A DNA stretch of 35,893 bases from an uncultured Gemmatimonadota bacterium (lineage in GTDB: Bacteria; Blakebacterota; Blakebacteria; Blakebacterales; Blakebacteraceae), in NCBI GenBank assembly GCA_964576115.1, contig CAZNUA010000037.1, positions 1-35,893 of the forward strand, given 5' to 3'. The notes below the pieces were generated by a model. The model ran no database searches, had not been told where the DNA came from, and was given only the letters and a program-made list of their open reading frames with translations. A program made the translations under genes and the position numbers. Shown piece by piece: positions 1,544-34,880 of this stretch. Each line of letters opens with the position of its first letter. Within the stretch, counting starts at the first letter, position 1.

Positions 1544-2251
1544 GTGAACGATCCCGACCGATCGACGCCCGACCGCATCCTCATCGTGGACGACGTTCCC
1601 GTCAACGTGGCCCTGATGGAAAAGTACGTCAGCGGGAAGGGCTACGAGACCGTGAGCGCCGCTTCGGGGGCCGAGGCCCTGCGTCTGATGGCCGAGCAAC
1701 CCCCCGACCTGGTCCTGCTCGATGTAGTCATGCCCGACATGGACGGATTCGAGGTCTGTGAGGCTCTACGGCGCGATCCCGCCACCGAGCAGATCCCCGT
1801 CATCATGGTCACCGCCCACGAGACCGAATCGGAGGCCAAGGCCCGCGGTCTGCGAAGCGGCGCCAATGATTACCTGACCAAGCCGGTCAATCGTGACGAG
1901 CTGCTGGCCCGGATCGAAACCCAGCTCCGGCTGCGCGACCTCGAGGCCAAGCGGCTCCTGCTCGAGAAACTGAATCTCACCTCGCAGATGGTCACGACCC
2001 TGCACCACGAGATCAACAATCCCCTGACCGGCATCCTCGGGTATGCGCAGCTGCTCATCGGCCGGCTGGAGAAGGGATCTCCCGATCCCGACGAACTCCG
2101 TACCGCTGTAAACCGCATCAGGGATGCCAGCGAGCGCATCCGGGAGGTGATGATAAAACTGAACCGGATCACCGATCCCGACGCCACTCGCTCCTCGGGC
2201 GGCGTGACCATGCTCGAACTGGACGACGAAGAGTCCGGGGCGGGGGAGTGA
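1544..2251 (+). CDS. response regulator, REC + HisKA (no HATPase domain)
   Basis: ILIVDD, LVLLDVVMPDMDG, MVTA, DYLTKP; H-box TLHHEINNPLTGILG; the protein ends before any N/G1/F/G2 boxes. GTG start. Confidence 0.85.
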   Translation: MNDPDRSTPDRILIVDDVPVNVALMEKYVSGKGYETVSAASGAEALRLMAEQPPDLVLLDVVMPDMDGFEVCEALRRDPATEQIPVIMVTAHETESEAKARGLRSGANDYLTKPVNRDELLARIETQLRLRDLEAKRLLLEKLNLTSQMVTTLHHEINNPLTGILGYAQLLIGRLEKGSPDPDELRTAVNRIRDASERIREVMIKLNRITDPDATRSSGGVTMLELDDEESGAGE

Positions 2252-2308
2252 AACGCTCTCTCGCGGCCGTCTTTCCCTCTGTCGGGTAAGCCGTCGGATG
2301 AGATCGGC

Positions 2309-3493
2309 ATGCTCGTAGTCGCGGCCGCTACCGCTCTCTACCTCCTTTGGCTGTGGCTCGAGGCCCGCCGGCACGAGCGGCGGCGGCGGGCCCTGCCGCT
2401 CTGTATCGCCGTGACCGGCACCCGCGGCAAATCGGGGGTCGTCAGGCTCCTGGCGGCGGTTCTGCGCGAAAGCGGCCGGCGGACCATGGCCAAAACCACC
2501 GGTTCGCGTCCGATGCTCCTGTTCCCCGACGGTTCCGAACGGTTCATCCGGCGGCGGGGATCGGCTTCGATCATCGAACAGAAGCGGCTGGTGCGCGAAG
2601 CCGTCCGCCATGAAGCTGACGTCCTGGTGGCCGAGATCATGAGCCTGCACCCCGAATGCCACCGCATCGAAGCCCGGCGCCTGCTGTGTCCCGAACTGGT
2701 CGGACTCACCAACGTGCGCCGCGACCACCTCGAAGCCATGGGCGGGACCGAGGCCGGGATCGCGGCAACGCTCGCCCTCGATCTGCCCCCCGGAGCGGAT
2801 CTGTTCGTGCCCGCCGCCGAAGGGCGCGACGAGTTCCGCCGCGCCGTCCGCGCGGGTGGGGGGCGCTGCGTCGAGGTGCCCGCCGGCGCCTCGGCCTGGC
2901 TCACTGCGCAAACCGCTGAACCGGGCTCGATGTCCGCCCTGCATTTTCCTGAGAACCTCGATCTGGTCTGTGCCCTGGCCGACGAACTCGGTCTGGAGCG
3001 CGAGGCCGTGCGGCGGGGGATCGCACAAGCCAAGCCCGATCTCGGATCGCTCGGCATCTGGCAGCTGACCTCCGCGGACCACGGGCGGCGGATCTGGCTG
3101 GTGAATGCCTTTGCGGCCAACGATCCCGATTCCACTGCCCGGGTTCTGGAAAGGGTGCGCGCCCGTCTGCCGCAACCCCTCGCTCCGGTCACCGGTCTGC
3201 TCAGTCTGCGGGCCGATCGGGGCGAACGAACGCGGCAGTGGATCGCGGCTCTCGGCGATCCGCTGGCCGGTGCCTTCACCGACCTCTGGTTCTGCGGTCT
3301 GCACGCCCGGGCGGTGCGCCGTCGCCTCGGACGGGGCCGGCTGCTCGCCGCAGCCGATCCGGCCGACATGACCCGGACGGTCACCTCTGACATGCCCGAC
3401 GGAGGAATACTGTTCGGCTGCGGAAACATCGGCGGTCCGGGCCTGGATCTGGTGCAGTTCTGGCGAAAGGCGGCTGAACCGTATGGGCTATGA
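2309..3493 (+). CDS. pgsB: poly-gamma-glutamate synthase PgsB/CapB (Mur-ligase family)
   Basis: N-terminal TM; IAVTGTRGKS, AKTTG, TNVRRDH, NAFAANDPDST motifs; followed by pgsC. Confidence 0.92.
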   Translation: MLVVAAATALYLLWLWLEARRHERRRRALPLCIAVTGTRGKSGVVRLLAAVLRESGRRTMAKTTGSRPMLLFPDGSERFIRRRGSASIIEQKRLVREAVRHEADVLVAEIMSLHPECHRIEARRLLCPELVGLTNVRRDHLEAMGGTEAGIAATLALDLPPGADLFVPAAEGRDEFRRAVRAGGGRCVEVPAGASAWLTAQTAEPGSMSALHFPENLDLVCALADELGLEREAVRRGIAQAKPDLGSLGIWQLTSADHGRRIWLVNAFAANDPDSTARVLERVRARLPQPLAPVTGLLSLRADRGERTRQWIAALGDPLAGAFTDLWFCGLHARAVRRRLGRGRLLAAADPADMTRTVTSDMPDGGILFGCGNIGGPGLDLVQFWRKAAEPYGL

Positions 3494-3914
3494 GATCCCT
3501 TTCCTCGGTCTGCTTCTCTCCCTGCTCTTTATCGCCCTGACCGGTATCTACCCCGGCGGGATCATCGTTCCCTCCTGGCTGGTTCTCTTCATCCACGAAC
3601 CGGCCCGGATCGTCGGCACCCTCGTCGTTGCTCTGCTCGCTTTCGGCCTCTACCGCCTGGCATCACGCCGTCTCATCCTCTTCGGCCGCCGGCGGTTCGT
3701 CTTCCTGCTCCTGCTCGGCGGCGTGCTGGCGGCTCTCACCGCCCGGCTCCTGCCCTCCGTCTTTCCCGCTTCACTCGAGTTCCGGGTCATCGGCTGGGTC
3801 ATCCCGGGGCTGATCGCCAATCATTTCGAACGGCAGGGTCCGCTCGTGACCACGGCCGGGCTCGTCACCGTCACGGTCGCCCTGGCCCTGCTCGGACGGG
3901 TGCTGGGCCTGTGA
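3483..3914 (+). CDS. pgsC: poly-gamma-glutamate biosynthesis protein PgsC/CapC
   Basis: 143-aa hydrophobic protein; TGIYPGGIIVP, ILFGRRRF, IGWVIPGLIAN..ERQG; overlaps the pgsB stop. Confidence 0.93.
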   Translation: MGYEIPFLGLLLSLLFIALTGIYPGGIIVPSWLVLFIHEPARIVGTLVVALLAFGLYRLASRRLILFGRRRFVFLLLLGGVLAALTARLLPSVFPASLEFRVIGWVIPGLIANHFERQGPLVTTAGLVTVTVALALLGRVLGL

Positions 3915-4981
3915 GCCGGCGCGACCGTCTCATCGTCGCGGCCGGAGGAGCAAGCCTGACGGCCTGGCTGGTCGTATCCCTCTGCCTCCCCCCGGTCCGG
4001 CTGCCCTGGATTCCCGAGCGGCTCGAGGCGGCGCAGATCATGGACGAAGCCGTCGGAGCGGTACGCAGCCACTGCGAAACGCGGAACATCGCCATCGACG
4101 AGCGGATCGATCCCAACCGGACCGGTCTGATCGGCCCCGAACTCACCCCCCTGATGACCACTCTTGGCGATGTCGCCGCCAAGCGGACGACCACCACGCC
4201 CGATATGGCCGCCCTCGTCCTGTATCTTCTCCGCACCGCCGGCGTCGCTGCAGGCGATACCGTTGCGGTCGGGGCTTCGGCGTCCTTCCCGGCCCTGCTG
4301 GCGGCGGTCCTGGCAGCCTGTTCGGCGGGCGGCATCCACCCGGTCGTCATCATCTCGCTCGGAGCCTCTTCCTTCGGAGCCACCCGGCCCGAGCTGACCC
4401 TGCTCGACCTCTGCCGTATCTGGCGCGAGGCCGGCATCTTTCCGCATCTCCCGGTCGCGGTCACCCTCGGGGGAACCGGCGATGTCGGCCGGGAGTTCCC
4501 CGACGGGGTGCGGGCCGAGCTCGGTGAGCGTATCGGCCGCAGCTCTCTGGCGACCTTCGCCTGCGATGACCTCGAGACCAACGTCCGGCGACGCCTGCGG
4601 ATATATGCCGACGCCGCACCGCGTCTGGCCGCCTTCGTCAATATCGGCGGCAGCTGGGCCAATCTCGGCACGAGTCATCTCGCCCTGCGTCTCGAACCAG
4701 GACTGAATTCGCCCAACGGCCTCACCCTCCCGCCGCCGCAGCAGCGGGGTGTCCTGTTCGCCATGGCGGCCCGCGGTGTGCCGGTCATCCACCTGCTCTT
4801 CATCCGGGGGTTGGCCCGCCGTCACGGACTGGCGTGGGATCCGGTGCCCCTGCCTGCGCCCGGTTCGACGCCGTTGCTGAGCGGGGTGTCGGAGCAGGGG
4901 GTTCTCTTCTGGTTCGTGACGGTGATCTGGCTGGCGATCATGGGCGGTCTGATCCTCGTCGACCGTCCGAGTCGGAATTGA
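3911..4981 (+). CDS. poly-gamma-glutamate system protein (PgsW-like)
   Basis: IDPNRTGLIGPELTPLMTTLG..AKRTTT.PD, LGASSFGA, FVNIGGS.ANLG, GVPVIHLL; N- and C-terminal TM segments; GTGA overlap with pgsC. Confidence 0.85.
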   Translation: MSRRDRLIVAAGGASLTAWLVVSLCLPPVRLPWIPERLEAAQIMDEAVGAVRSHCETRNIAIDERIDPNRTGLIGPELTPLMTTLGDVAAKRTTTTPDMAALVLYLLRTAGVAAGDTVAVGASASFPALLAAVLAACSAGGIHPVVIISLGASSFGATRPELTLLDLCRIWREAGIFPHLPVAVTLGGTGDVGREFPDGVRAELGERIGRSSLATFACDDLETNVRRRLRIYADAAPRLAAFVNIGGSWANLGTSHLALRLEPGLNSPNGLTLPPPQQRGVLFAMAARGVPVIHLLFIRGLARRHGLAWDPVPLPAPGSTPLLSGVSEQGVLFWFVTVIWLAIMGGLILVDRPSRN

Positions 4982-5052
4982 TACCGGGGGCGTCGTGGGA
5001 TATCATATCTTTCTGTGCCCTCTGCCCGTGGTTGCGAATGAAGGAGCCCATC

Positions 5053-5670
5053 ATGAAGCACCTCTGGAAACCGGTGGCAGCGCTGGCCCTCGTCGTGGCG
5101 TTCGCGGCAGCGGTCCCCGGTCGTCTCACCGCCCAGGAGGAAACGCCCACCGCCGAGCTGCCGGTCCTGATCGCCTCGTGCGGTCAGAGCCCGGGACCCT
5201 CCTACTTCAACGTCTTCCTGCGCCGGCTCGGATACGACTACACCTTCAATACCCTGGCGACGGTCCAGGACCTGCGGGCCGGGTACGGCGAAGAGGGTGT
5301 GCCGTACAAAGCTCTCATCATCGTCACCGGTGCCAGCCTGAAGGGCATGGGCGCAGCCGGCATCTCGATCGATGAGGAACTGGCTCGTACCGAAGCCCTG
5401 ATCGACGCGGCCGAAGAGCTGGGGGTCACGGTCATCGGGGCCCATATCGAGGGCATGGAACGGCGGGCGCAGGGAGCCGCTCCCGGCGACAACTCCGACG
5501 AGCTCTCGATCGATGCCGTCTGTACACGGGCCGATTTTCTCATCGTTCTTCAAGAAGGGGATGAGGACGGCCGCTTCAGCGCCATCTCCGAGTCGAACGA
5601 CATCCCGATCATCCTCTACGAGATGCGGACGGGGCTGAACGATGTTCTGCAGAGCGTGTTCGGCGGGTAA
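5053..5670 (+). CDS. secreted protein, DUF6305-like
   Basis: RBS AAGGAG at 5041-5046, ATG at 5053; signal peptide; CGQSPG, GASLKGMGAAG, HIEGMERR motifs. Confidence 0.75.
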   Translation: MKHLWKPVAALALVVAFAAAVPGRLTAQEETPTAELPVLIASCGQSPGPSYFNVFLRRLGYDYTFNTLATVQDLRAGYGEEGVPYKALIIVTGASLKGMGAAGISIDEELARTEALIDAAEELGVTVIGAHIEGMERRAQGAAPGDNSDELSIDAVCTRADFLIVLQEGDEDGRFSAISESNDIPIILYEMRTGLNDVLQSVFGG

Positions 5671-5682
5671 AGGGCGCTTCGC

Positions 5683-6975
5683 ATGAGCATGTTCGCTTCG
5701 GCCGGGATCGTTCTCGGCGTCATGGTGGCGGTTTATGCCGCGGCCAAGATCTTCCGGCTCTCCACCGAACTGGCCATGCTGGCGGCGGCAGTGGTGGGGG
5801 CTCTGGTCGGCGGTTTCGGCTTTCCCGCCCGCCATTACGCCGAGGGAGCCATCACCTACCTCGACATCAACCTGATCTTCATCACCGCCACCCTCTTCAT
5901 GAACATCCTCAAGGAGTCGGGGGGGGTGGCCTTCGCGGTGCGGGGGATCCTGGCCCGCTTCCATAGCAATCGGGCCCTGCTGCTCATCCTCATGACCATC
6001 CTGCTGCTCCTGCCCGGGGCGCTGACCGGGGCGGGGAGCGTGACGGTGCTGATCACCGGCGGGATGGTGGCCATCGTGCTCTCCTACATGGGCATCACCC
6101 GGCGTCGTACGGCCGCCATCATATTCCTGATCGCGGGCATGAGCGCGGCTGCTCCACCGGTGAGCCTGTGGGCCATGATGACCGCTGCCGGGGTCAACAT
6201 GCCGTATGTCGGCTTCTTCATGCCCCTGCTCATACCCTGCGTGGTGGCCTCGCTGCTGACCGCCTTCATTCTGGGCTGGAAGGGGGGCGAAACCGATTAC
6301 GAGCGGGCCCTGGCCGAACTGCCCGAGCCCCCGGCGGGGATGAACTGGTTCAAGGTTCTGCTGCCCTTCGTGATCTTTCTGCTCCTGGTGCTGGTGGGAC
6401 GCTGGTTCCCGCACTCCACGCCGATTCTCGGTCTGCCGCTGATGTTCGTCTGCGCCGCCGTCATCTCGTTCCTGCTCTCCCCGGTCAGGCTCGACGTGGT
6501 GAAGATCAGCGAGCGCACCGTCGAGCAGCTCCTGCCCCTGATCGGCACACTGACCTGCGTGGGGATCCTGGTCCAGGTCATGACCCTGACCGGGGTGCGG
6601 GGCCTGCTGGCGGTTACGGCCGTGACCCTGCCGGTGGCGCTCGTCTTCGCCAGCCTCTTCTGGCTGATGCCGGTCTCCGAAGCGGTGCTCATGTACGGCG
6701 CCGCCCCGGTGATCGGGGTGCCGCTGATCCTGCTTTTCAACACCATGGGGCTGAACCCGATCGTGGCCCTGGCGGGACTGAGCGTGATCTGGCCGCTCGG
6801 CGACGCTCTGCCGCCCACCGCCATCATCGGCCGGCTGACGGTCGAGGTGGTGGAGTATCGCGAATCGTACACGAGCTTTCTGAAGGCCTGCACGGTGCCG
6901 GCGGTGATCATCATGATTCTCGGTACCCTGATGGTCGTCTTCAGTAAGCACCTGGCCTTCCTGACGGGATTGTAG
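5683..6975 (+). CDS. DctM-like/ion-transporter-superfamily permease
   Basis: 430 aa with about 11-12 hydrophobic segments; LPGALTGAGS, AAAPPVSLWAM, GDALPPTAIIG hairpin-like motifs. Confidence 0.8.
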   Translation: MSMFASAGIVLGVMVAVYAAAKIFRLSTELAMLAAAVVGALVGGFGFPARHYAEGAITYLDINLIFITATLFMNILKESGGVAFAVRGILARFHSNRALLLILMTILLLLPGALTGAGSVTVLITGGMVAIVLSYMGITRRRTAAIIFLIAGMSAAAPPVSLWAMMTAAGVNMPYVGFFMPLLIPCVVASLLTAFILGWKGGETDYERALAELPEPPAGMNWFKVLLPFVIFLLLVLVGRWFPHSTPILGLPLMFVCAAVISFLLSPVRLDVVKISERTVEQLLPLIGTLTCVGILVQVMTLTGVRGLLAVTAVTLPVALVFASLFWLMPVSEAVLMYGAAPVIGVPLILLFNTMGLNPIVALAGLSVIWPLGDALPPTAIIGRLTVEVVEYRESYTSFLKACTVPAVIIMILGTLMVVFSKHLAFLTGL

Positions 6976-6984
6976 GAGGCTGTC

Positions 6985-7149
6985 ATGGTCTTTCTGGGTA
7001 CAGTCATCACCATCATCTACTACCTGCTCGTGGCTTATCTGGTCGTCATCATGATCCGCAACCTGATCCGCACGAAGAGCTGGGAGAAGGAGATCCTCTA
7101 CGTCGTGGTACTGATCCCCTTCCTGCTGCGGCTCCTGCGGTTGAAGTAG
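6985..7149 (+). CDS. 54-aa two-helix membrane protein (absent from the ORF track)
   Basis: RBS AGGAGG overlapping the upstream TAG; MVFLGTVITIIYYLLVAYLVVIMIRNLIRTKSWEKEILYVVVLIPFLLRLLRLK*; fills the gap between operon genes. Confidence 0.8.
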   Translation: MVFLGTVITIIYYLLVAYLVVIMIRNLIRTKSWEKEILYVVVLIPFLLRLLRLK

Positions 7150-7157
7150 GGGGGGCG

Positions 7158-8366
7158 ATGGAGGCGGAAACGGGAACGGAAACGAGGCAGGCTCAAGGTA
7201 CAGGCGGTACCGGAACCGTGCGTAAATACATCTTCTGTGCCTTCGGTCTGGTGGTTCTGGTCGCTTCGGGGATCAGTTTCTACCAGAGCCGCCACCGCGC
7301 TGAACCGGTCGTGATCGGTGAGGGCGTGACGCAGGTCCGCAAACTGAGCGAGTACTTCTCTCCCCTGGCGGGAAGCGTCAACGACTGCAACCTGTACTTC
7401 CTTGAGGGCGAACGACCGGGAGCGACGATCTTCGTTCTGGGCGGTTCGCACCCCGAGGAGCCTGCCGGGCGGCTGGCGCCCTGGCTCTTTGCCGAGAACG
7501 GGGTCATGGAGGCGGGGCGGCTCATCGTCGCCATGAGCGGGAACCGCAGCGCCACCACCGTCACCCGCATCAGCGGCGGCTACCCGCCCGATTTCACCAT
7601 CCCGACCGATTGGGGCGGACAGACCTTCCGCATGGGTGACCGCTGGTCGAACCCGCTCGACCAGTGGCCCGATCCCGAGGTCTACATCCACCACCCCAGC
7701 CGCCAGAATCTGGCCTATGTGGACATCCGTAATCTCAACCGCTGCTGGCCGGGACGGCCCGACGGCACCCTGACAGAACGCACCTGCTACGCTTTCATGG
7801 AGCTGATCCGCACCGAGGAGGTCGACATCTTCATCGACCTGCACGAGGCCGAACTGCAGTACCCGGTGATCAGCACCATCGTGGCCCACGAGGACGGGGT
7901 CGATCTGGCCACCTTCGTTTCGATGATGCTGACCGACATGGAAGGCTTCAAGATGGGGCTGGAGTATTCGCCGAAAAGCCTGCACGGGCTCAGTCACCGC
8001 GAGGTGGGGGATTACTCAGATGCCATCAGCCTGCTCTTCGAAGCCCCCGAACCTTTCCTCGACGCCACCCGGGGGCGCACCACCCGCGAACAGCTTCTGA
8101 CCGGCAAGGACGAGTTCGTCGTCAAGGCCGGCGAGCACGGTCTGCTCTTCGAAAAGATCGACGAAAACGGCTGGCCGATCGACGTGCGGGTCGGCCGGCA
8201 CACCTCGGCCATACTGCAGACCATGGAGATCTGGTCGATGGATCACCCCGACCGCCCGCTCATCTGCAGCGGCGTACCCCGCTACGCCGAGGTGATCGCC
8301 AACGGCGTCGGGCATTACCTGCACGATCCGGCCCGGGCCGCGCCCGGCCGTGTCTATTACGAGTAA
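7158..8366 (+). CDS. succinylglutamate desuccinylase/aspartoacylase (M14-like) zinc hydrolase, membrane-anchored or exported
   Basis: GGSHPEE (HxxE), NLNR, IDLHE motifs; N-terminal hydrophobic segment. Alternative start GTG at 7218. Confidence 0.8.
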   Translation: MEAETGTETRQAQGTGGTGTVRKYIFCAFGLVVLVASGISFYQSRHRAEPVVIGEGVTQVRKLSEYFSPLAGSVNDCNLYFLEGERPGATIFVLGGSHPEEPAGRLAPWLFAENGVMEAGRLIVAMSGNRSATTVTRISGGYPPDFTIPTDWGGQTFRMGDRWSNPLDQWPDPEVYIHHPSRQNLAYVDIRNLNRCWPGRPDGTLTERTCYAFMELIRTEEVDIFIDLHEAELQYPVISTIVAHEDGVDLATFVSMMLTDMEGFKMGLEYSPKSLHGLSHREVGDYSDAISLLFEAPEPFLDATRGRTTREQLLTGKDEFVVKAGEHGLLFEKIDENGWPIDVRVGRHTSAILQTMEIWSMDHPDRPLICSGVPRYAEVIANGVGHYLHDPARAAPGRVYYE

Positions 8367-8389
8367 CCGTGACCTGAACAAGGAGTGCT

Positions 8390-10081
8390 GTGGTGAAATC
8401 GGAGCGTTTTCATAGAATCCTGACCGGGGTTCTCATCCTGTCGTTCTTCACCGTCGTGACGGCGGTCACACCGGCCGCCGCCCAGGTGCCGGCCGGGGCG
8501 GTTGCCTCCGATCCGGCTTACGGGATGGTGAATCCCGACGAGGCGGGCTGTACCTCGATCATGGTGGCCAAAGGGGCCTCGACCGACGGATCGGTGATCA
8601 CCTGCCATTCGTGTGACGGCAACTACCGGACCTGGCTCAACATCGTGCCGCACACTACCCACCAGGCCGGTTCTGAGCGCGATATCTACTGGGGCCGGCT
8701 GCACACCGAGACCGCCTGGGACATGCGGCGGATGACTTTGAAAGGCACCATTCCCCAGGTCGGGGAAACCTGGGCCTACATGAACGTCGGCTACCCCTGC
8801 ATGAACGAGAAGGGGCTGGCCATCGGCGAGACCACTATCGGCGGCCGGGGCGACCTGCGCAACCGCGACGGACTGTTTCTGATCGAGAACCTGCAGGCGA
8901 TCGTGCTCGAGCGCTGCACCACGGCGCGCGAGGCGATCCGGCTCATCGGCGAGCTGGTGGCCGAGTACGGCTACGGCGACAACGGCGAGTGCCTGACCTT
9001 CGCCGATGCTCATGAAGTCTGGCACTTCGAGATCATGGGCAGCACCATCCTGGAGATCGGTGCGGTCTGGGCCGCGGTTCGCATTCCTGACGATCATGTC
9101 GGCGTCTCGGCCAACATCCCCCGCATCAGCACTCTCGACCTGGACGATCCCGACCACTACATGGCTTCGGACAACGTCTTCAGCCTGGCCGAGGAGATGG
9201 GCTGGTACGATCCCTCCAGCAACGAGCCCTTCAAGTGGTGGAAAGCCTACGGGCGGACCGACCGCGAGGGCAATCCGACCCCGCCGTACTCGACCCGCGA
9301 GTTCTTCATCCTGAGCACAATGGCGCCCTCCCTCGGGCTGACCCGTGACATGGAGGAACTGCCCTTCTCGGTCAAACCCGACGAGAAAGTCTCGGTCCGC
9401 GACGTCATGCGCTACTACCGCGAGACCTACGAGGGTACCGACCTCGACGCCTCGCAGAATCTGACCGTAGCCCAGCGCCGCTATAACCGTGAGACGGGGC
9501 AGTTCGAGGTAGGCGAGAAGGTCACCAGCCCGCTGGCGTGCAACTGGACGGTGGGCCGCGACCTGGGCCAGCTCGTGAACGAACTCGTACCCGGTACGGT
9601 CGAGAGCCAGCGCACCATCGCCATCGCGGGGTGCTCGTACTCGCAGGTGATCCAGTGTCGCGACTGGCTGCCCCCCGAGATCGGCACCGTGGCCTGGTTC
9701 TCCTTCGACAACCCGGGACAGAGCCCGCGCATTCCCATCTTCGCCGGCACTCTGCGTCTGCCGCCGAGCTTCGAAATTTGCTGCCAGCACCGCTTCCGCA
9801 CCGACGCCGCGGGGTGGTGGTTCCGGCGGGCCAACCGTCTCTCGATGATCGTCTGGGGCCGCACCCGGGGGATGATCGAAGAAGCCGTCATGGCTTTCGA
9901 GGACCGGGCCTTCACCGAGCTACCCGCCGTCGAGCAGATCTATCTCGACATGGTGAGGACCGATTACGACGCCGCCCGGGAGTACATCACCCAGTACACC
10001 AACGACTTCGCCCACGCCGCCATGCACAAGTGGTGGGAACTGGGCGATGAACTCTGGGCCATTTACGCCCGCGGGTGGTAG
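8390..10081 (+). CDS. peptidase family C69 (Ntn-hydrolase dipeptidase), exported
   Basis: Signal peptide; AG|CTSIMVAKGASTDGSVITCHSCDG, MNEKGLAIGETT, TTAREAIRLIGELVAEYGY; RBS AAGGAG. Confidence 0.9.
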   Translation: MVKSERFHRILTGVLILSFFTVVTAVTPAAAQVPAGAVASDPAYGMVNPDEAGCTSIMVAKGASTDGSVITCHSCDGNYRTWLNIVPHTTHQAGSERDIYWGRLHTETAWDMRRMTLKGTIPQVGETWAYMNVGYPCMNEKGLAIGETTIGGRGDLRNRDGLFLIENLQAIVLERCTTAREAIRLIGELVAEYGYGDNGECLTFADAHEVWHFEIMGSTILEIGAVWAAVRIPDDHVGVSANIPRISTLDLDDPDHYMASDNVFSLAEEMGWYDPSSNEPFKWWKAYGRTDREGNPTPPYSTREFFILSTMAPSLGLTRDMEELPFSVKPDEKVSVRDVMRYYRETYEGTDLDASQNLTVAQRRYNRETGQFEVGEKVTSPLACNWTVGRDLGQLVNELVPGTVESQRTIAIAGCSYSQVIQCRDWLPPEIGTVAWFSFDNPGQSPRIPIFAGTLRLPPSFEICCQHRFRTDAAGWWFRRANRLSMIVWGRTRGMIEEAVMAFEDRAFTELPAVEQIYLDMVRTDYDAAREYITQYTNDFAHAAMHKWWELGDELWAIYARGW

Positions 10082-10121
10082 GCGGGCAGGTCCTGCCACC
10101 GATCGCCACAGCCGGTTTGTA

Positions 10122-10162
10122 CGCCCGCTCCGGGATTCTGGTCCCGGAGCGGGCGCTCCTCT
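10122..10162 (+). terminator. strong hairpin ending the pgs/peptidase unit
   Basis: Perfect 14-bp stem CGCCCGCTCCGGGA / TCCCGGAGCGGGCG with a 6-nt loop; pyrimidine tail CTCCTCT, not a true U-run. Confidence 0.6.
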
Positions 10163-10310
10163 GCCGAACTCCGTGATCATAACTGTCCCGAGAGGCCCCT
10201 CTTTTCACTTGTAACCTGGATGGTTGCGGACTTCTTATGACCTGCTCCCGTAGCCGGGATCAGGCCTCAGAGCGGTGTCCGATCCCGGGTACCGGCCGGG
10301 AGGTTCGGTC

Positions 10311-11558
10311 ATGAGTGAGAAGGTCATCCTCGCCTACAGCGGCGGTCTCGACACCTCGGTGATCCTCAAGTGGCTCCTCGTCGAAGGCTATGAGGTCATC
10401 GCCTATATCGCCGATGTGGGCCAGCGCGACGACCTGGAAGCGGCCCGGGCCAAGGCTCTCGAGACCGGTGTCAGCACGGTCTATGTCGAGGATCTCAAGC
10501 GGGAATTCGTCACTGACTTCATCTTCCCGGCTTTCAAGGCCAACGCCATCTACGAAGGCCGCTACCTGCTGGGGACCGCCCTGGCACGACCGCTGATCGC
10601 GAAGCGTCAGATCGAGATCGCGGCCGCCGAGGAAGCCCCGTACGTCGCGCACGGCGCGACGGGGAAGGGGAACGACCAGGTCCGGTTCGAGCTCTCCTAT
10701 TACGCCCTGAATCCCCGGATCAAGGTCCTCTCCCCCTGGAAAACCCCGGCCTTTCTCGATCAGTTCCAGGGCCGCAGCGATCTGCTCGCCTTTGCTGCTG
10801 AACACGGGATCGAGGTCACGGCCACGGCCGAGAAACCGTTCAGCGAGGACGAGAACCTGCTCCACATCTCGCACGAGGCCGGCATCCTCGAGGATCCCCT
10901 CTACGAGGCGACTGAGGAGGTCTATTCGTGGACCGTCGCTCCCGAGGCGGCCCCCGACGAGCCGGAGCGCATCGCGCTGACCTTCCAGGACGGCATCCCC
11001 GTCGAGGTGCGCAACCTCGACGACGGCACGGTGCACACCGACCCGCTCGAACTCTTCACCTACCTGAACTCCATCGGCAGCCGGCACGGCATCGGGCGGC
11101 TCGACATGGTCGAGAACCGCTATGTCGGGATCAAGTCGCGGGGCGTGTACGAAACCCCCGGCGGCACCATCCTGCATGCGGCGCACATGGATATCGAGGG
11201 CATCGCCATGGACCGCGAGGTGATGCGCCTGCGCAATATGCTCACCGCCAAACTCTCCGAACTGATCTACTACGGCTTCTGGTTCAGCCCCGAGATGGAC
11301 TTTTTGATGGCCGCCATCGATGCCAGTCAGGACGTCATCGACGGCACCGTCACCCTCAAGCTCTACAAGGGAGTCGCCCTGCCGGTGGCCCGGGAATCCT
11401 CGTCCTCGCTCTACGACCGGGAGTTCTCGAGCATGGATATCGAGGGCGGTTTCAACCAGGTCGATTCGGCCGGTTTCATCCGGACCAACGCCATCCGCCT
11501 GATGGCCCACAGCGCCATCATGAAGCGTAAGCACCGCCGTTGGGGGATGGACTCATGA
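10311..11558 (+). CDS. argG: argininosuccinate synthase
   Basis: [64 protein letters not shown] before ATG 10311. Confidence 0.98.
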
Positions 11559-12796
11559 CGCTCTGGAACGTGGGGGGCGAGACAGATCCCGAAGTGCTCC
11601 GCTTCTCGGCCGGTGATGAGTACCGGCTCGACCAGCGCCTTGTACCCTGCGACTGCCGGGCGTCGATCGCCCACGCCCGCATGCTGGGCTCGATCGGGGT
11701 TCTGACCGCCGATGAAGTGACCGACCTGACCGCCGGCCTGGAAGAGATCATCCGCCTGCATGCGGCCGGGGAGTTCGCCATCGCACCCGAACAGGAGGAT
11801 TGCCACACCGCCATCGAGCAGTGGCTGACGGCCGAGGTCGGCGAGGCCGGGCGGAAGATCCATGCCGGCCGCTCGCGTAATGATCAGGTGCTGACCGCCC
11901 TGCGGCTCTGGCAGAAGGACGCCCTGGCCGAGATGGACCTGCAGCTCGAGACCTACCGGACCGCCCTCTCGGCCCGGGCTGGCGAACTCGGATCGGTCGA
12001 GATGCCCGGCTATACCCACCTGCAACGAGCCATGCCGACCACGGCCGGGATCTGGCTTGGCGCCTTCGCCGAAGCTGCCGCGCAGGACCGCGAAATCCTG
12101 GCGAGCACGTGCGATCTGATCGATGCCTGTCCCCTGGGAACCGGGGCTGGATACGGGGTGCCGGTCTTCGAGCTGGATCGGGAGATGACCGCCCGCGAGC
12201 TGGGTTTCGCCCGGGTCGAGGAGAATCCGATCCACGCCCAGATGACCCGCGGGAAGTACGAAGCAGCCCTTCTGGCACTCTTTTCGCAGATCATGTTCGG
12301 CCTCAACCGCCTGGCCTGCGATCTACTGCTCTTCACCACCCGGGAATTCGGTTTTGTCACCCTGCCCGAGGAACTCTGCACCGGTTCCTCGATGATGCCG
12401 CAGAAGCGCAATCCCGATGTGCTCGAACTCATCAGGGCCCGCTACAGCGTCGTGCTGGCCCGGGAGTTCGAAGTCAGGAGCCTGATCGGCAACCTCATGA
12501 GCGGCTATCAGCGCGATCTCGGCCTGACCAAGGCCCCGCTCTTTGCCGCCTGTGACATCACCCTCACGAGTCTGGATATGATGCGCCGGGTAGTTGAAGG
12601 CTTCCAGTTGAACGAGGAGGCCTGTCGCCGGGCGCTGACACCGGAGCTGTATGCGACCGAGGAAGCCAACCGGCTCGTCCGGAAGGGACTGTCCTTCCGA
12701 GAGGCGTACCGGCAGATAGGAGAGAAGTACCGGCCGGGGACCGCTGGCGACATCGGTCGTTCCCATCCGGAGGCCGGGCTGGAGGATCGGCCCTGA
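11555..12796 (+). CDS. argH: argininosuccinate lyase
   Basis: [44 protein letters not shown] overlap with argG. Confidence 0.96.
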
Positions 12797-25146: not shown

Positions 25147-26322
25147 TCAGATCTCCTCGAGCCTGTCGGGGATGGCGGTGAGCCGCTCGCGTGCTTTCTC
25201 AGCGATCGCCGGGACGACCCGGATTCCCCAGACGACGAGGAAGACGGCTCCGGCCGCCAGCGTCACCACGAAGATCGCGAACATGCCCCACTGCAGGTTG
25301 ACCGGTATCGCGGCCAGGTCGAAGGTGCCCTCCAGGGCCCAGATGCGGGTCAGGTCGCGGAAGATGACCTGGCTCGCGATCGCAAGGGTGATGCCGAGCG
25401 AGGCTGAGATCAGGGCCCCCGGTCCGGCCGCTCCCCGGGCCCGATAGGCGAAGAGGACGAGGCCGATCAGGCCGATCAGGCCCACTGCAAAGAGTACCGG
25501 AGTGGCGCCGACCTCCTGCCAGAGGGCCTTGATCTCATTCCCCCGGGTCGCCAGCAGCCCGAGGGCGGCCACCAGCCAGACCGCGGGCGAGAGAAGCACG
25601 GTCCGCAGGCCGGTACGCTCCGAGATGTCGGCCGCCTCGGCCAGTCCCCACCGGCGCATGACATGCCCCCGCCACATCAGCGCCAGACCGGTGACCGCGA
25701 AACTGCCCGAGAGAAAGAGCAGGAAGCGCGGCACGATGGTGGGCTCACCGTGCAGCAGCACTCCCCCGCCCGGGTGGTCGGCGTACAGACCGGCGAACTT
25801 CTCCGGACTCATCGAAAGAGTGAGGTTGTTGACGTAGATGAAACCCACGTACAGCAGGAGCACGGCCCCGGTCACGACCAGCGCGGTCTGGCCCCGGGGG
25901 CGCGCGTCGCGCATGAACTTGTGGTAATAGAAGATGGCGTAGGCGGCCAGCATGACCGGGATCACCTGGATCCAGAAGGTACCCACGATTACCGAAGAGG
26001 CGTAGAAGAGCTGGCCGTACAGGACCTGCACGAAAAGCAGCGGCGGGATACCCAGGGTGATGATGTACGACACCCCGAGCGGAAAGCTGCTCCCCAGGAA
26101 GCGGGTGATGCCCTCGTGATCGGGTATTTTGCGCCAGCGCGCCCAGAGAAAGAGGATCAGCCCTCCGACCGTGAAGTTCATGGCCAGGAAATGCAGGGTC
26201 AGGGTCAGCCAGGCCAGGGCCTGCAGGATCCAGGGGGGCAGGGGGAAACCGAGCGGATCGGGGCCCGGTATCTGAGGCTGGGCCAGCGCACAGGTCAGCA
26301 GGGCGGTTGTCACGGTCGTCAT
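25147..26322 (-). CDS. multi-TM protein, second CydA-like subunit of a bd-like oxidase
   Basis: LTLTLHFLAMNFTVGG (helix-I His), ITLGIPPLLFVQVLYG; about 9 TM; ATGA overlap with the upstream CydA-like gene. Confidence 0.7.
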   Translation of the reverse strand: MTTVTTALLTCALAQPQIPGPDPLGFPLPPWILQALAWLTLTLHFLAMNFTVGGLILFLWARWRKIPDHEGITRFLGSSFPLGVSYIITLGIPPLLFVQVLYGQLFYASSVIVGTFWIQVIPVMLAAYAIFYYHKFMRDARPRGQTALVVTGAVLLLYVGFIYVNNLTLSMSPEKFAGLYADHPGGGVLLHGEPTIVPRFLLFLSGSFAVTGLALMWRGHVMRRWGLAEAADISERTGLRTVLLSPAVWLVAALGLLATRGNEIKALWQEVGATPVLFAVGLIGLIGLVLFAYRARGAAGPGALISASLGITLAIASQVIFRDLTRIWALEGTFDLAAIPVNLQWGMFAIFVVTLAAGAVFLVVWGIRVVPAIAEKARERLTAIPDRLEEI

Positions 26323-27755
26323 CGTCCACCCTCCCTTCCGCTGGCCGGCAGGTCTGCGCCGGGCCGGACCGCTCCGTTACCGTTGACTGTCCAGAGCGCG
26401 TCGGCCAGCGCTGCCGACCGCTCTGCGGCTACCAGTTCGGCGGCCGACACCGTCTGGCCTCCATGACTCGACACGATCCAGGCGGCCAGGGCAGCCCGGT
26501 CTTCGAGCGTGCCCTGGAAGGGCGGCATCACGCCGGTCTCGTGCATGGTTTCGAACCACCGCAGGCCGAACTCTCCGCTCCAGTTCTCGGTCCGGGCGGC
26601 CAGCGACCGGTACCCCTGCCAGGTATGGCAGCTCGAGCACTGCAGACGCCAGAGCCACTCTCCGTGTTCAGCGCTCAGGGGCTCGACAGGCGGGGCCCAG
26701 CGGGCCTGTTCCAGGTAGGGCCGGCCCATGTAATCGGGATCCTCCGCTTTCTCCTGCCAGAGGCTGTTGGAGTATAGAGTGCCGTACACGACATAGGGTT
26801 TACGGGCCATCTCCCGGAAGAACTCTCCGCCCATGAAACCGAACTGGGCGATCACGAACAGGGCGATCGCCCCGGCAGTGGTGGCGACCCGGGGCCGCCA
26901 GGCCACGAACGCCGTGCCGGCTACGATCAGGAAACCGGCTGAAATCGCCAGCCAGAAATAGCGGGTGAGGGCTTCGAGGCGTCCCCCCATGACACCGGTG
27001 ACGCCCTCCCGGAAAAGCGTGACCGTGGCCTCGGGCAGGGTCGAGAAGTACCAGAGCAGCAGGGGAGGAGTCAGAATGGCGGCCGGGATGACCCATCTGG
27101 CCGCGAAGCCGATTACCTTTTCCTTGAAAGCTTTGTCCTCGAAGCGGGTGGCGACGATGATCGCGAAGAGCCCGGCCAGCATGAACATGATCAGGGTTCT
27201 GATAAAGAGCGAGGGGAAGAACCCGGGGTTGAAGAAACCGGCGGCGATCGACGTGCCGGCCAGCGACCACTGACCCGGAGTGAGCATGAAGGTCAGGATG
27301 CCGTTGATGATGAACAGCGACAGCCAGGCGGAAACGAAATAGGCCCCGGCCAGGAAAATCTGCCGCCCGCGCCCGTAGCGGCCCCAGCCGTAGAAGTAGA
27401 AGTACAGGATGGTGAGTTCAGCCAGGAACATGACCCATTCGGTGGCCCAGGCGAAGACGAACTGGTGGATCAGCAGGCTCGTGCCTTCAGGGCTGGCCAG
27501 CTGGATGGCGAACCAGATCCCCACCCCCGTCACGGCCCCGAAGACGGTCGTGTAGACCAGGAACCAGGTGGCGTACTTGTGCAGCCACTCCCTGATCGCC
27601 TCGCCGTTCGGCTGCCGGTCCGACCAGATCTCGGCCACGAAGAGCAGAGCTCCGCCGCCGATCGCCAGGTGCGAGATCAGCACATGGATGATGGCGATGA
27701 TCGCGACGACGAGTCCCGCTCCCAGGAAGGGGACGTCCCAGACCGGGTAGTTCAT
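26319..27755 (-). CDS. cytochrome bd subunit I-like protein fused to a c-type cytochrome domain
   Basis: IHVLISHLAIGGG, FGAVTGVGIWF, WATEWVMFLAE, IINGILTFMLTPG, EFFREMARKPY; C-terminal CSSCH...GVMPPF. Confidence 0.85.
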   Translation of the reverse strand: MNYPVWDVPFLGAGLVVAIIAIIHVLISHLAIGGGALLFVAEIWSDRQPNGEAIREWLHKYATWFLVYTTVFGAVTGVGIWFAIQLASPEGTSLLIHQFVFAWATEWVMFLAELTILYFYFYGWGRYGRGRQIFLAGAYFVSAWLSLFIINGILTFMLTPGQWSLAGTSIAAGFFNPGFFPSLFIRTLIMFMLAGLFAIIVATRFEDKAFKEKVIGFAARWVIPAAILTPPLLLWYFSTLPEATVTLFREGVTGVMGGRLEALTRYFWLAISAGFLIVAGTAFVAWRPRVATTAGAIALFVIAQFGFMGGEFFREMARKPYVVYGTLYSNSLWQEKAEDPDYMGRPYLEQARWAPPVEPLSAEHGEWLWRLQCSSCHTWQGYRSLAARTENWSGEFGLRWFETMHETGVMPPFQGTLEDRAALAAWIVSSHGGQTVSAAELVAAERSAALADALWTVNGNGAVRPGADLPASGREGGR

Positions 27756-27792
27756 GCCTGTATCTCCCGTCGGGGGAAACTGGCGAGCGGGT

Positions 27793-28908
27793 TCACGAGA
27801 GCGCTCCCCAGAGGGTGAGGATGATCAGGGCCAGCAGGGCCGTGACGCCGAGCCGGGTGGTGAGCCGGCCGCGTTCGTCGCTCGGGATCGAGCGGTCGAA
27901 GAACGGAACGGCCACCAGACCGAGCGGGATCAGGGTCAGGATCGCCAGCCCGAGCAGTTCGATCCGGCCCGGGAACAGCTTCAGCAGCTGGAACTGCGAG
28001 AGAAAATACCACTCGGGTTTGATTCCGGCCGGTGCGGCGGCGGCCGCATTGGCCTCGGGCGCCAGGGGCCGCGGCCAGATCGCCGACAGCGCCACCAGCA
28101 GCACCCCCGTCGCCATCCAGATCGGGATCTCGCCGAACATGAATTCGGAGAAGAACTTCTCGTAGCGCTTCTTCTCCGGCGGCAGGGCCGCGAAGGAGTC
28201 TGGCTCGCTCATGCCCTGGAGCTGAATGAAGAGCAGATGCAGCCCCAGCACGGCCAGGATCGCGAGCGGCAGAACCATGACGTGCAGGGTATAGAAGCGG
28301 CCCAGGGTATCGAGGGTCACCTCGGGGCCTCCCCGGGCCAGGTCGGCCATGAAGTGTCCGAGCAGGGGCAGTTTATCCAACTCGCTGATCCCCACCCGGG
28401 TGGCGAAGAAGGCCAGGTCGTCCCAGGGAAGCAGGTAGCCCGAGAACCCGAAGACCAGGGTGATGGCGAACAGTCCCGCCCCCGTGAGCCAGGTGAACTC
28501 CCGCGGCCGGCGATAGGCCTTCATGAAGAAGGTGCTGAACAGATGCAGGAAAAGAGAGAGAACCATCAGGTTGGCGCTCCAGTGGTGCACGCTCCTGATC
28601 AGGCTCCCGTAGGGCACTTCCATGACGATCCGCTGCACGCTCATCCACGGCTCGGCCGGGCGGTAGTAGATCATCAGCAGGATGCCGGTGACGACCTGTA
28701 CGGCGAAGAAGAAGAGCGCGATTCCGCCCATGTTGTACCACACCGACTGGCTGTGCCGGGGGACCGTCTTGTCGGCCAGGTGGCGCAGGGCCGGCCAGAC
28801 CGGATAGCGGTGCAGGAACCAACGCGAGACCTTGCCGGGAAGTGTCTCCCCGGCCGGGAGCTGGGGTTCGGCCTCGGGGGGGATCGGGTACTCGGTCATG
28901 GTCTCCAT
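27793..28908 (-). CDS. petB: cytochrome b of a Rieske/cytb complex (unsplit)
   Basis: RSVHHWSANLMVLSLFLH, AYRRPREFTWLTG, GFSGYLLPWD, FYTLHVMVLP...LH, IKPEWYF. Alternative start at 28899. Confidence 0.93.
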   Translation of the reverse strand: METMTEYPIPPEAEPQLPAGETLPGKVSRWFLHRYPVWPALRHLADKTVPRHSQSVWYNMGGIALFFFAVQVVTGILLMIYYRPAEPWMSVQRIVMEVPYGSLIRSVHHWSANLMVLSLFLHLFSTFFMKAYRRPREFTWLTGAGLFAITLVFGFSGYLLPWDDLAFFATRVGISELDKLPLLGHFMADLARGGPEVTLDTLGRFYTLHVMVLPLAILAVLGLHLLFIQLQGMSEPDSFAALPPEKKRYEKFFSEFMFGEIPIWMATGVLLVALSAIWPRPLAPEANAAAAAPAGIKPEWYFLSQFQLLKLFPGRIELLGLAILTLIPLGLVAVPFFDRSIPSDERGRLTTRLGVTALLALIILTLWGALS

Positions 28909-28918
28909 CCCGCGCTCC

Positions 28919-29377
28919 TCAGCTCTCGGGCCGGTACACGTAGAGGAGGCCCTCCTCCTCGACGACGTCCAGTTCCCTCAGCGGTCGCGGCGGCGGCCCC
29001 GAGACGTTCTGTCCCTCCAGGTCGTACACGCCGCCGTGACAGTGGCAGTAGATCCGATCCCCCTCGAAAGCCACATTGCAGCCGGCGTGGGTGCACTTGG
29101 AATCGAAGGCCTTCAGTTCCCCCGCGGCATTGCGGAATACGATCAGGCCCCGGTTGCCGTAGGCCCCGTTCTTCCCCATGCCGGGATTCTTCACCTCGGC
29201 CAGGGTGATACCCTGGACCACGGCCCGGCCCTGTTCGTCGAAGGGATCGGGGGGCGCCTGCGGACTCAGGTAGCCGAAGACGGGCACCAGAGCGGCTCCG
29301 AGCCAGCCGAGACCGATGGCTCCCAGGAAACCGAGGAAGCGGCGTTTGGAAGGACTGATGGTCTGTTCCTCACCCAT
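28919..29377 (-). CDS. Rieske [2Fe-2S] protein
   Basis: Tat-like SKRRFLG plus TM; CTHAGC and CHCHGGVYD; GPPPRPL. Confidence 0.95.
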   Translation of the reverse strand: MGEEQTISPSKRRFLGFLGAIGLGWLGAALVPVFGYLSPQAPPDPFDEQGRAVVQGITLAEVKNPGMGKNGAYGNRGLIVFRNAAGELKAFDSKCTHAGCNVAFEGDRIYCHCHGGVYDLEGQNVSGPPPRPLRELDVVEEEGLLYVYRPES

Positions 29378-34815: not shown

Positions 34816-34880
34816 CCCGGGGAAAATGAAGTCATACTCTGCACTCGGACAGCCACCTCGGATCTCAGCGGAGCGTGCCG

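Follow-up and report, generated by a model that had tools for sequence, protein, structure and literature searches.

Introduction

The biology of poly-gamma-glutamate (PGA) is known almost only from Bacillus, in which the pgsBCAE-pgdS and capBCADE loci carry a hydrolase gene behind the synthase genes. PgsBC alone are reported to suffice for PGA formation in B. subtilis (PMC6029982), and CapsuleFinder is described as making CapB and CapC obligatory and counting CapA and CapE as accessory (PMC5542703). Gram-negative loci of the pgsBCW type are without an agreed function. Here we describe such a locus at positions 2309-10155 of a 35,893-nt stretch of DNA from an uncultured Gemmatimonadota bacterium (contig CAZNUA010000037.1; the whole stretch is referred to as the window). 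Its pgsB, pgsC and pgsW genes are followed by a module that encodes a DUF6305 protein, a permease, a 54-residue membrane protein and an M14/AstE-like zinc enzyme, and then by a gene for a C69 Ntn-hydrolase.

The window resembles the Bacillus loci in that its PgsB and PgsC are orthologues that score over curated cut-offs and in that hydrolase genes lie behind the synthase genes. It differs from them in having PgsW in place of PgsA, in giving no match to PgdS, CapD or CapE, in the type of its hydrolases (AstE-type zinc and C69), in its linked transporter module and in its diderm host. Because PgsBC alone make PGA and CapA and CapE are accessory, the absence of pgsA is no novelty; an earlier reading of this DNA from its letters (the sequence-only reading) had taken the missing pgsA and capE to be notable. 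The three-gene layout of B-C-W type and the diderm host are shared with capBCA of Francisella, the third gene of which (FTT_0807) is labelled 'poly-gamma-glutamate system protein' in Table 3 of PMC5362203, although the likeness to PgsW is one of label only. The third Francisella cap protein is described as an inner-membrane protein (PMC4688374), and the cited portions of PMC4688374 and PMC5362203 make no mention of a hydrolase or transport module. Fusobacterium nucleatum is a Gram-negative PGA producer with an operon that lacks pgdS (Candela 2009, as cited in PMC3815933), and Cetobacterium somerae, a member of its family, has the full module together with pgsBCW.

The association between the pgs genes and the module is real, widely conserved and apparently undescribed; no description of the module was found in the literature searched, from which subscription journals are largely missing. 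We read the two linked units as a make-and-recover cycle for a putative gamma-glutamyl polymer in a diderm, with the substrates and product predicted from family membership and fold, and give this reading a probability of about 0.55.

Association of the module with pgsBCW

Scanning GTDB with an alignment of the M14-like protein gave at least 588 relatives, and the best 80 loci (64-80% identity) were analysed. Thirty-eight of these are evaluable, the other 42 having flanks shorter than 4 kb (upstream of the module) or 5 kb (downstream of the M14 gene). Within 10 kb of the M14 gene, the range to which the pgs search was confined, pgsBCW is complete in 29/38 evaluable loci and no pgs gene is present in nine. 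Across the whole set at least one pgs gene is found in 51/80 loci and all three in 42/80; hidden Markov models built from the loci detected pgs genes in 0/29 pgs-negative loci and matched all three controls. The DUF6305 and permease genes precede the M14 gene in each of the 69 loci that have at least 2.4 kb of upstream sequence. The sequence-only reading had asked whether the module keeps company with pgsBCW, and in the evaluable loci it mostly does. Of the observations that together were to count against that reading, one is that the downstream genes usually occur without pgs genes and another that they have their own promoter; the first of these does not hold, and for the second a candidate exists (see below).

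The 80 loci cover Gemmatimonadota, Bacteroidota, Ignavibacteriota, Acidobacteriota and Aminicenantes. The gene order of the window is repeated in 27 of them, from at least four named phyla (Gemmatimonadota, Bacteroidota, Ignavibacteriota and Acidobacteriota) and from unassigned bins. Bacillota is not counted as a supported phylum because the titles of the Eubacteriales bins are doubtful: loci L050, L051 and L060 come from bins so titled and are placed among Aminicenantes, L060 being nearly identical to L059, and the titles may be wrong. Linkage of pgs genes and module occurs in five arrangements, these being co-oriented, with C69 ahead of pgsB (3 loci), convergent (13 loci, many titled Aminicenantes, with pgsBCW downstream and C69 missing), divergent (1 locus) and module-then-pgs, as in Cetobacterium. 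The order in C. somerae is ggt, DUF6305, permease, 47-residue protein, deacylase, pgsB, pgsC, pgsW. The enzyme encoded directly before DUF6305, in the stead of C69, is a canonical GGT (TIGR00066, 568 against a cut-off of 358). Among 72,556 plasmid records M14, PgsW, DUF6305 and the permease each match one record only, that of Cetobacterium. Two actinomycete pgsBC loci without pgsW both lack the module.

Two fusions occur among the 150 M14 representatives listed. In P0251 two transmembrane (TM) segments connect PgsW (TIGR04332, 267 bits) with M14 (AstE), whilst P0300 is a fusion of M14 and DUF6305. The linkage in 29/38 loci, the five arrangements, the exchange of C69 for GGT and the PgsW-M14 fusion are all counted as support for the cycle.

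Several points weigh on the other side. P0251 and P0300 are each a single representative and may be read-through artefacts. Taking the best 80 loci favours near relatives, and common descent accounts for much of the co-occurrence. The correlation between the distances of M14 and PgsB (Spearman coefficient 0.71), which speaks for the cycle, ignores phylogeny. The module is better conserved (M14 69%, permease 71%) than the synthase (PgsB 39%, PgsW 42%), so that it may have a more general role. The nine evaluable loci with the module and no adjacent pgs gene, which do not suit the description of the system as self-contained in the sequence-only reading, comprise seven from Acidobacteriota (six part of one clade) and two from Bacteroidota, three loci lying elsewhere in the tree. 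The enzyme activities of all parts are predicted ones. The main caution on the product is Francisella capBCA, which is without an established capsule role; capBC/capBCA is dispensable there for the polysaccharide capsule and its role is given as unknown in the cited part of PMC4688374.

Four of the pgs-less Acidobacteriota loci (L046, L070, L078 and L079) encode an M28 peptidase upstream of DUF6305, at the position that pgsBCW would hold. In L079 the M28 gene and then phasin and ABC1 kinase genes lie upstream of the module.

An ancestral block that was co-inherited or co-transferred without any functional coupling would also leave such linkage behind, and the trees of PgsB and M14 (the latter a quick tree) largely agree. 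For the divergent locus L074, re-acquisition of a foreign pgsBCW was considered and set aside, the approximately unbiased (AU) test not rejecting vertical descent (p 0.46 for PgsB, 0.59 for PgsW). However, the adjacency survives strand inversion and a swap of order and extends out to Fusobacteriota at 43% M14 identity, whereas the genes that flank the locus in the window are not retained among the 80 related loci (argG 0/80, full-length response-regulator homologue 1/80). We regard purely historical linkage as very improbable.

The synthase genes

PgsB passes the NCBIfam cut-off of TIGR04012 (245.9 against 222.7 bits). In 43 homologues the motifs GTRGK, KTTG, E-x-M-S, N-x-R-x-DH, FAANxP, R-x-DR and G-x-x-N reach a conservation of 90% or more, and the window protein keeps every one of them. 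PgsC exceeds the TIGR04011 cut-off by a narrow margin (100.3 against 96.45 bits) and also matches PF14102; standing next to PgsB, it completes the CapB and CapC pair. PgsW reaches 286.8 bits with TIGR04332 (cut-off 100), and its gene adjoins pgsBC. In the AlphaFold model of PgsW (pLDDT 89.6) helices 3-25 and 331-350 flank an alpha/beta domain, and the charges beside the first helix suggest that this domain is periplasmic. On the question of a phosphatase-like fold as in PgsA, the best match in a structure search has a Z of 8.1 [root mean squared deviation (rmsd) 3.5 for 137 aligned residues]; no Foldseek match was obtained at E ≤0.001 and no metallophosphatase is among the matches listed, although kinship is still possible. 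Searches of PDB sequences with PgsW, DUF6305 and the permease gave no significant match. Family membership suggests PGA as the product of PgsBCW.

The view that no capA/pgsA, capD or capE is recognizable here stands: neither CapA (PGA_cap) nor a GGT/CapD domain was detected in the 36 window open reading frames (ORFs) scanned, and there is no CapE match. The CapA domain was likewise found in 0/189 proteins from the locus flanks, nearly all of them cluster representatives (474 flank candidates, 335 clusters). GGT was detected in this flank-protein scan only in Cetobacterium and in the Corynebacterium control, and the Cetobacterium GGT used as a tblastn query matched 0/80 GTDB loci.

The hydrolases

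The M14-like protein contains the M14-clan signature, with the H-x-x-E...H zinc ligands, N-x-N-R and the catalytic Glu. Residues H98, E101, R191-N192-x-N194-R195, D227, H229, E230 and E295 are invariant in 82/82 copies. The match to PF24827 is borderline (25.1 against a cut-off of 25), and the profile aligns with the structures of AstE, AspA and DoeB (E 4e-12 to 2.5e-9), making small-molecule deacylases the nearest solved relatives. Gamma-Glu-Glu and the AstE substrate N-succinyl-glutamate are one amino group apart. The zinc ligands and catalytic Glu are common to these deacylases and to phage PghP, which is reported to be a carboxypeptidase-A-like zinc PGA hydrolase, the GGT of B. subtilis being reported to strip single subunits from PGA (PMC4497714). 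Unlike both AstE/AspA/DoeB and PghP, the window enzyme is probably membrane-anchored and exported, as hydropathy suggests (TM segment 24-42), and it belongs to a family of its own (122 clusters at E ≤1e-30) with no relative in the phage collection. At window positions 7158-7220 the ATG start adds about 20 residues that are missing from homologues, and a GTG at 7218 would be closer to the usual 384-390 residues.

The C69 protein matches PF03577 (189.2 bits) and the PDB dipeptidase 5iau (E 1e-15), and falls below the cut-off of the NF033678 dipeptidase equivalog (182 against 250). Its Cys-Thr-Ser nucleophile motif is present in 70/70 copies. The gene occurs in 36/37 co-oriented loci and in 0/13 convergent ones, so it is not the fixed part that it had been taken for. 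The C69 proteins of L010, L035, L036, L039, L046, L074, L078 and L079 are 37-41% identical to that of the window, most pgs-linked loci giving 57-71%; five of these eight divergent copies are from pgs-less Acidobacteriota, which suggests a swapped subfamily. A second C69 paralogue follows the first in tandem in L002, L018, L026, L027, L034, L040-L042, L048, L055, L056, L064, L069, L072 and L081, mostly from Bacteroidota, and L018 has a third copy as well.

The properties of the two hydrolases bear on another possible role, in which PgsBCW would make short gamma-glutamyl chains for or on an envelope component, the Ntn-hydrolase would transfer or anchor them as CapD does, M14 would trim their length and the permease would only salvage the trimmings. 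The M14 profile weakly matches 4wcm/4q6m (E 2e-4 to 0.03), which we take to be Csd4 of H. pylori, a gamma-D-Glu-mDAP peptidase, and C69 weakly matches a C45 acyltransferase model (E 1e-5). CapD, an Ntn-hydrolase of the GGT family, is itself described as anchoring PGA (PMC4497714, PMC3815933), and the dispensability of Francisella capBC for the polysaccharide capsule would suit a role of this kind. However, the Ntn-hydrolase is missing in 13/13 convergent loci, that of Cetobacterium has the score of a canonical GGT, and the invariant core of permease, DUF6305 and M14 points to uptake. On balance an envelope role seems unlikely.

The transport genes

DUF6305 matches PF19823 (143.6 bits), and its model (pLDDT 87.2) consists of a signal peptide followed by one alpha/beta domain of about 170 residues. 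The invariant residues are S42 G44 Q45, G93 S95 K97 G98, H131, R137 R138 and D146; such Gly-rich loops together with Lys, Arg, His and Asp would fit carboxylate binding, and the protein may be a ligand-binding partner of the permease or of the hydrolase. The best match in a fold search is PfkB (Z 9.7, rmsd 3.0 for 146 aligned residues), tied with GT-B epimerases. Foldseek TM-scores are ≤0.40 and no solute-binding protein is among the matches listed, although kinship is still possible.

The permease and the 54-residue protein of the window have no Pfam or NCBIfam match. The permease, which has 12 hydrophobic segments by hydropathy, clusters with DctM/CitMHS/DcuC in the Atlas (score 0.99). Two orthologues match PF06808/PF03606/PF03600 directly, that of Cetobacterium scoring 34.6 with PF06808 (cut-off 23.8). 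The gene for the 54-residue protein is present in 63/69 loci by tblastn, and a local ORF scan gave 75 copies. Members of this family have two TM segments and 47-56 residues, with a C-terminal motif that is also conserved in the 47-residue Cetobacterium copy; neither a family match nor a DctQ match was found in 15 copies. The protein was considered as CapE or as a shortened DctQ and matches neither; its gene tracks the permease and not pgsBC, making a CapE role unlikely.

The module resembles the TRAP transporters (DctPQM) in its DctM-like large subunit and in the nearby order of genes for an exported protein, a permease and a small membrane protein. The exported component differs in being a single domain of about 170 residues with no DctP match, whereas binding proteins of the DctP type are two-lobed and have about 300 residues; DUF6305 was thus rejected as a TRAP binding protein on its mature length, its single domain and the lack of a DctP Pfam match. 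The small subunit likewise has two TM segments where DctQ has four.

Directly before the permease, ten loci of the Aminicenantes type (L047, L051, L057-L060, L062, L071, L073 and L076; for example L059:7895-8464) carry a conserved insert encoding about 190 residues; the protein has no Pfam match and combines a soluble domain with two TM segments. Several of these loci also encode M28 peptidases on the opposite strand.

Transcription units

The eight ORFs of the locus lie on the + strand with spacings, from pgsB to C69, of -11, -4, 71, 12, 9, 8 and 23 nt. This confirms the eight co-oriented genes, overlapping or at most 71 nt apart, of the sequence-only reading, and also its placing of the first strong hairpin only after the last gene. 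Among 40-nt folds in 2250-10320 that inverted repeat is the most stable (-34.5 kcal/mol, the next being -26.4), and it is absent from the terminator-scan list. A second, imperfect inverted repeat (10247-10295) lies ahead of argG.

A single eight-gene transcript, as had been proposed, does not agree with the presence of pgs and module on opposite strands in 14 loci, nor with the promoter-like sites in the gap between pgsW and DUF6305. The sigma70-like site in the window's gap (TTGATA-17-TATCAT, 10/12), which the sequence-only reading had not noted, is the best of three in 12.1 kb, a count not above that in shuffles (mean 1.5, standard deviation 1.1). Across 34 homologous gaps the median length is 76.5 nt, and matches of at least 8/12 to the sigma70 consensus occur in 14 of them, a count with no chance control. 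With these 14/34 matches, and with three loci in which the gap is only 11-23 nt and too short for a promoter, an internal promoter is not universal. The -7 element consensus of Bacteroidota is given as TAnnTTTG (PMC7366714); it is found exactly within 100 nt upstream of DUF6305 in 10/17 Bacteroidota copies, against 0.59 expected from shuffles, these genomes being related and not independent. DUF6305 probably has a promoter ahead of it, and the locus probably comprises two transcription units.

Separate control would also suit a module that takes up gamma-glutamyl or N-acyl amino acids (glutathione, peptidoglycan fragments, N-acyl-glutamate or N-acyl-aspartate) and feeds glutamate to the synthase rather than digesting its product. 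The promoter-like sites, the opposite strands in 14 loci and the 9/38 loci with no adjacent pgs gene are in keeping with scavenging of this kind, as are other exported peptidases nearby (of M28 type in 13 loci, of M14 and S41 type in some) and the kinship of M14 to small-molecule deacylases. Against this, the PgsW-M14 fusion would place the hydrolase at the exit of the polymer, a dedicated and highly conserved family remains tied to pgsW-type loci, and neither of the actinomycete pgsBC loci examined, both lacking pgsW, had a module. We consider scavenging in place of polymer recovery to be doubtful.

Boundaries of the locus and its host

The features of the locus are collected in Table 1. A response regulator-HisKA gene (window 1544-2251) lies 57 nt upstream, and argGH (window 10311-12796) lies 229 nt downstream. 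As these neighbours are not kept among the related loci, the boundaries given here are correct. An ATPase domain match was not found in the receiver-HisKA protein upstream of pgsB; a homologue (59%) is encoded just after C69 in L004:4122-4802, and in Cetobacterium a two-component pair lies ahead of ggt. A diderm host is supported by a TonB receptor plug encoded at window position 34875, and PgsB of the window branches beside Gemmatimonadota sequences in the PgsB tree. Elsewhere in the window (25147-29377, - strand) an unusual respiratory cluster encodes a Rieske protein, a cytochrome b and a fusion of cytochrome c with a cytochrome bd subunit I-like protein.

Table 1. Features of the pgsBCW locus, in window positions.
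Feature	Position	Strand	Description and basis
pgsB/capB	2309..3493	+	Mur-ligase-type poly-gamma-glutamate synthase, N-terminal membrane anchor, intact motifs; TIGR04012
pgsC/capC	3483..3914	+	Membrane subunit, 4 predicted TM; TIGR04011, PF14102, hydropathy
pgsW	3911..4981	+	Poly-gamma-glutamate system protein; TIGR04332, AlphaFold model
Candidate internal sigma70-type promoter	4978..5006	+	TTGATA-17-TATCAT, 10/12; consensus match only
DUF6305 protein	5053..5670	+	Signal peptide and single domain; ATG after AAGGAG site; PF19823
IT-superfamily permease (DctM/DcuC/CitMHS-like)	5683..6975	+	About 12 TM; Atlas grouping
54-residue 2-TM protein	6985..7149	+	Conserved beside permease; putative small transporter subunit
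M14/AstE-like	7158..8366	+	Membrane-anchored AstE/AspA-type zinc deacylase; PF24827; putative gamma-glutamyl exo-hydrolase
C69 Ntn-hydrolase	8390..10081	+	Exported, Cys54 nucleophile; PF03577; replaceable part
Hairpin	10122..10155		Perfect 14-bp stem 3' of last gene, no U-tract

A proposed make-and-recover cycle

In the cycle that we favour PgsB, by its family membership, would use ATP to polymerize glutamate at the inner membrane, and the chain would be moved out by PgsC and PgsW, the latter occupying the position of PgsA in Bacillus. Beyond that membrane the anchored enzyme of AstE/AspA type, the fold and catalytic residues of which fit a zinc hydrolase, would take the C-terminal glutamate off gamma-glutamyl chains or off gamma-Glu-Glu. 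The Ntn-hydrolase (C69 here, GGT in Cetobacterium) may work on the other end or on short peptides. Import of glutamate or the dipeptide would fall to the permease, a member of a known transporter superfamily, acting with the exported DUF6305 protein and the 2-TM partner. With its own candidate promoter the module could be switched on separately for breakdown, for example in starvation. Lineages with the module only may be scavengers, or may have pgs genes elsewhere in the genome. The sequence-only reading had interpreted the locus as a make-trim-reimport system, and this is partly supported by our analysis.

More tentatively, many diderm phyla, mostly uncultured, may possess an undescribed extracytoplasmic glutamate-storage cycle in which PGA would be deposited by PgsBCW. 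The AstE-like family could then be a new class of PGA exo-depolymerase, and DUF6305, the 2-TM protein and the DctM-like permease a new kind of binding-protein-dependent secondary transporter with a single-domain binding protein, serving gamma-glutamyl products. We think this wider proposal possible, though it is clearly less probable than the cycle itself.

The conserved neighbourhood is the first functional lead found for DUF6305, for its permease and for the large AstE-like family. As the whole set is held, together with GGT, by a cultured fish-gut isolate, Cetobacterium somerae, the question is directly testable. The proposal is of two non-orthologous PGA-degrading enzymes, and it bears on the control of polymer size and on the turnover of PGA in sediments, soils and guts.

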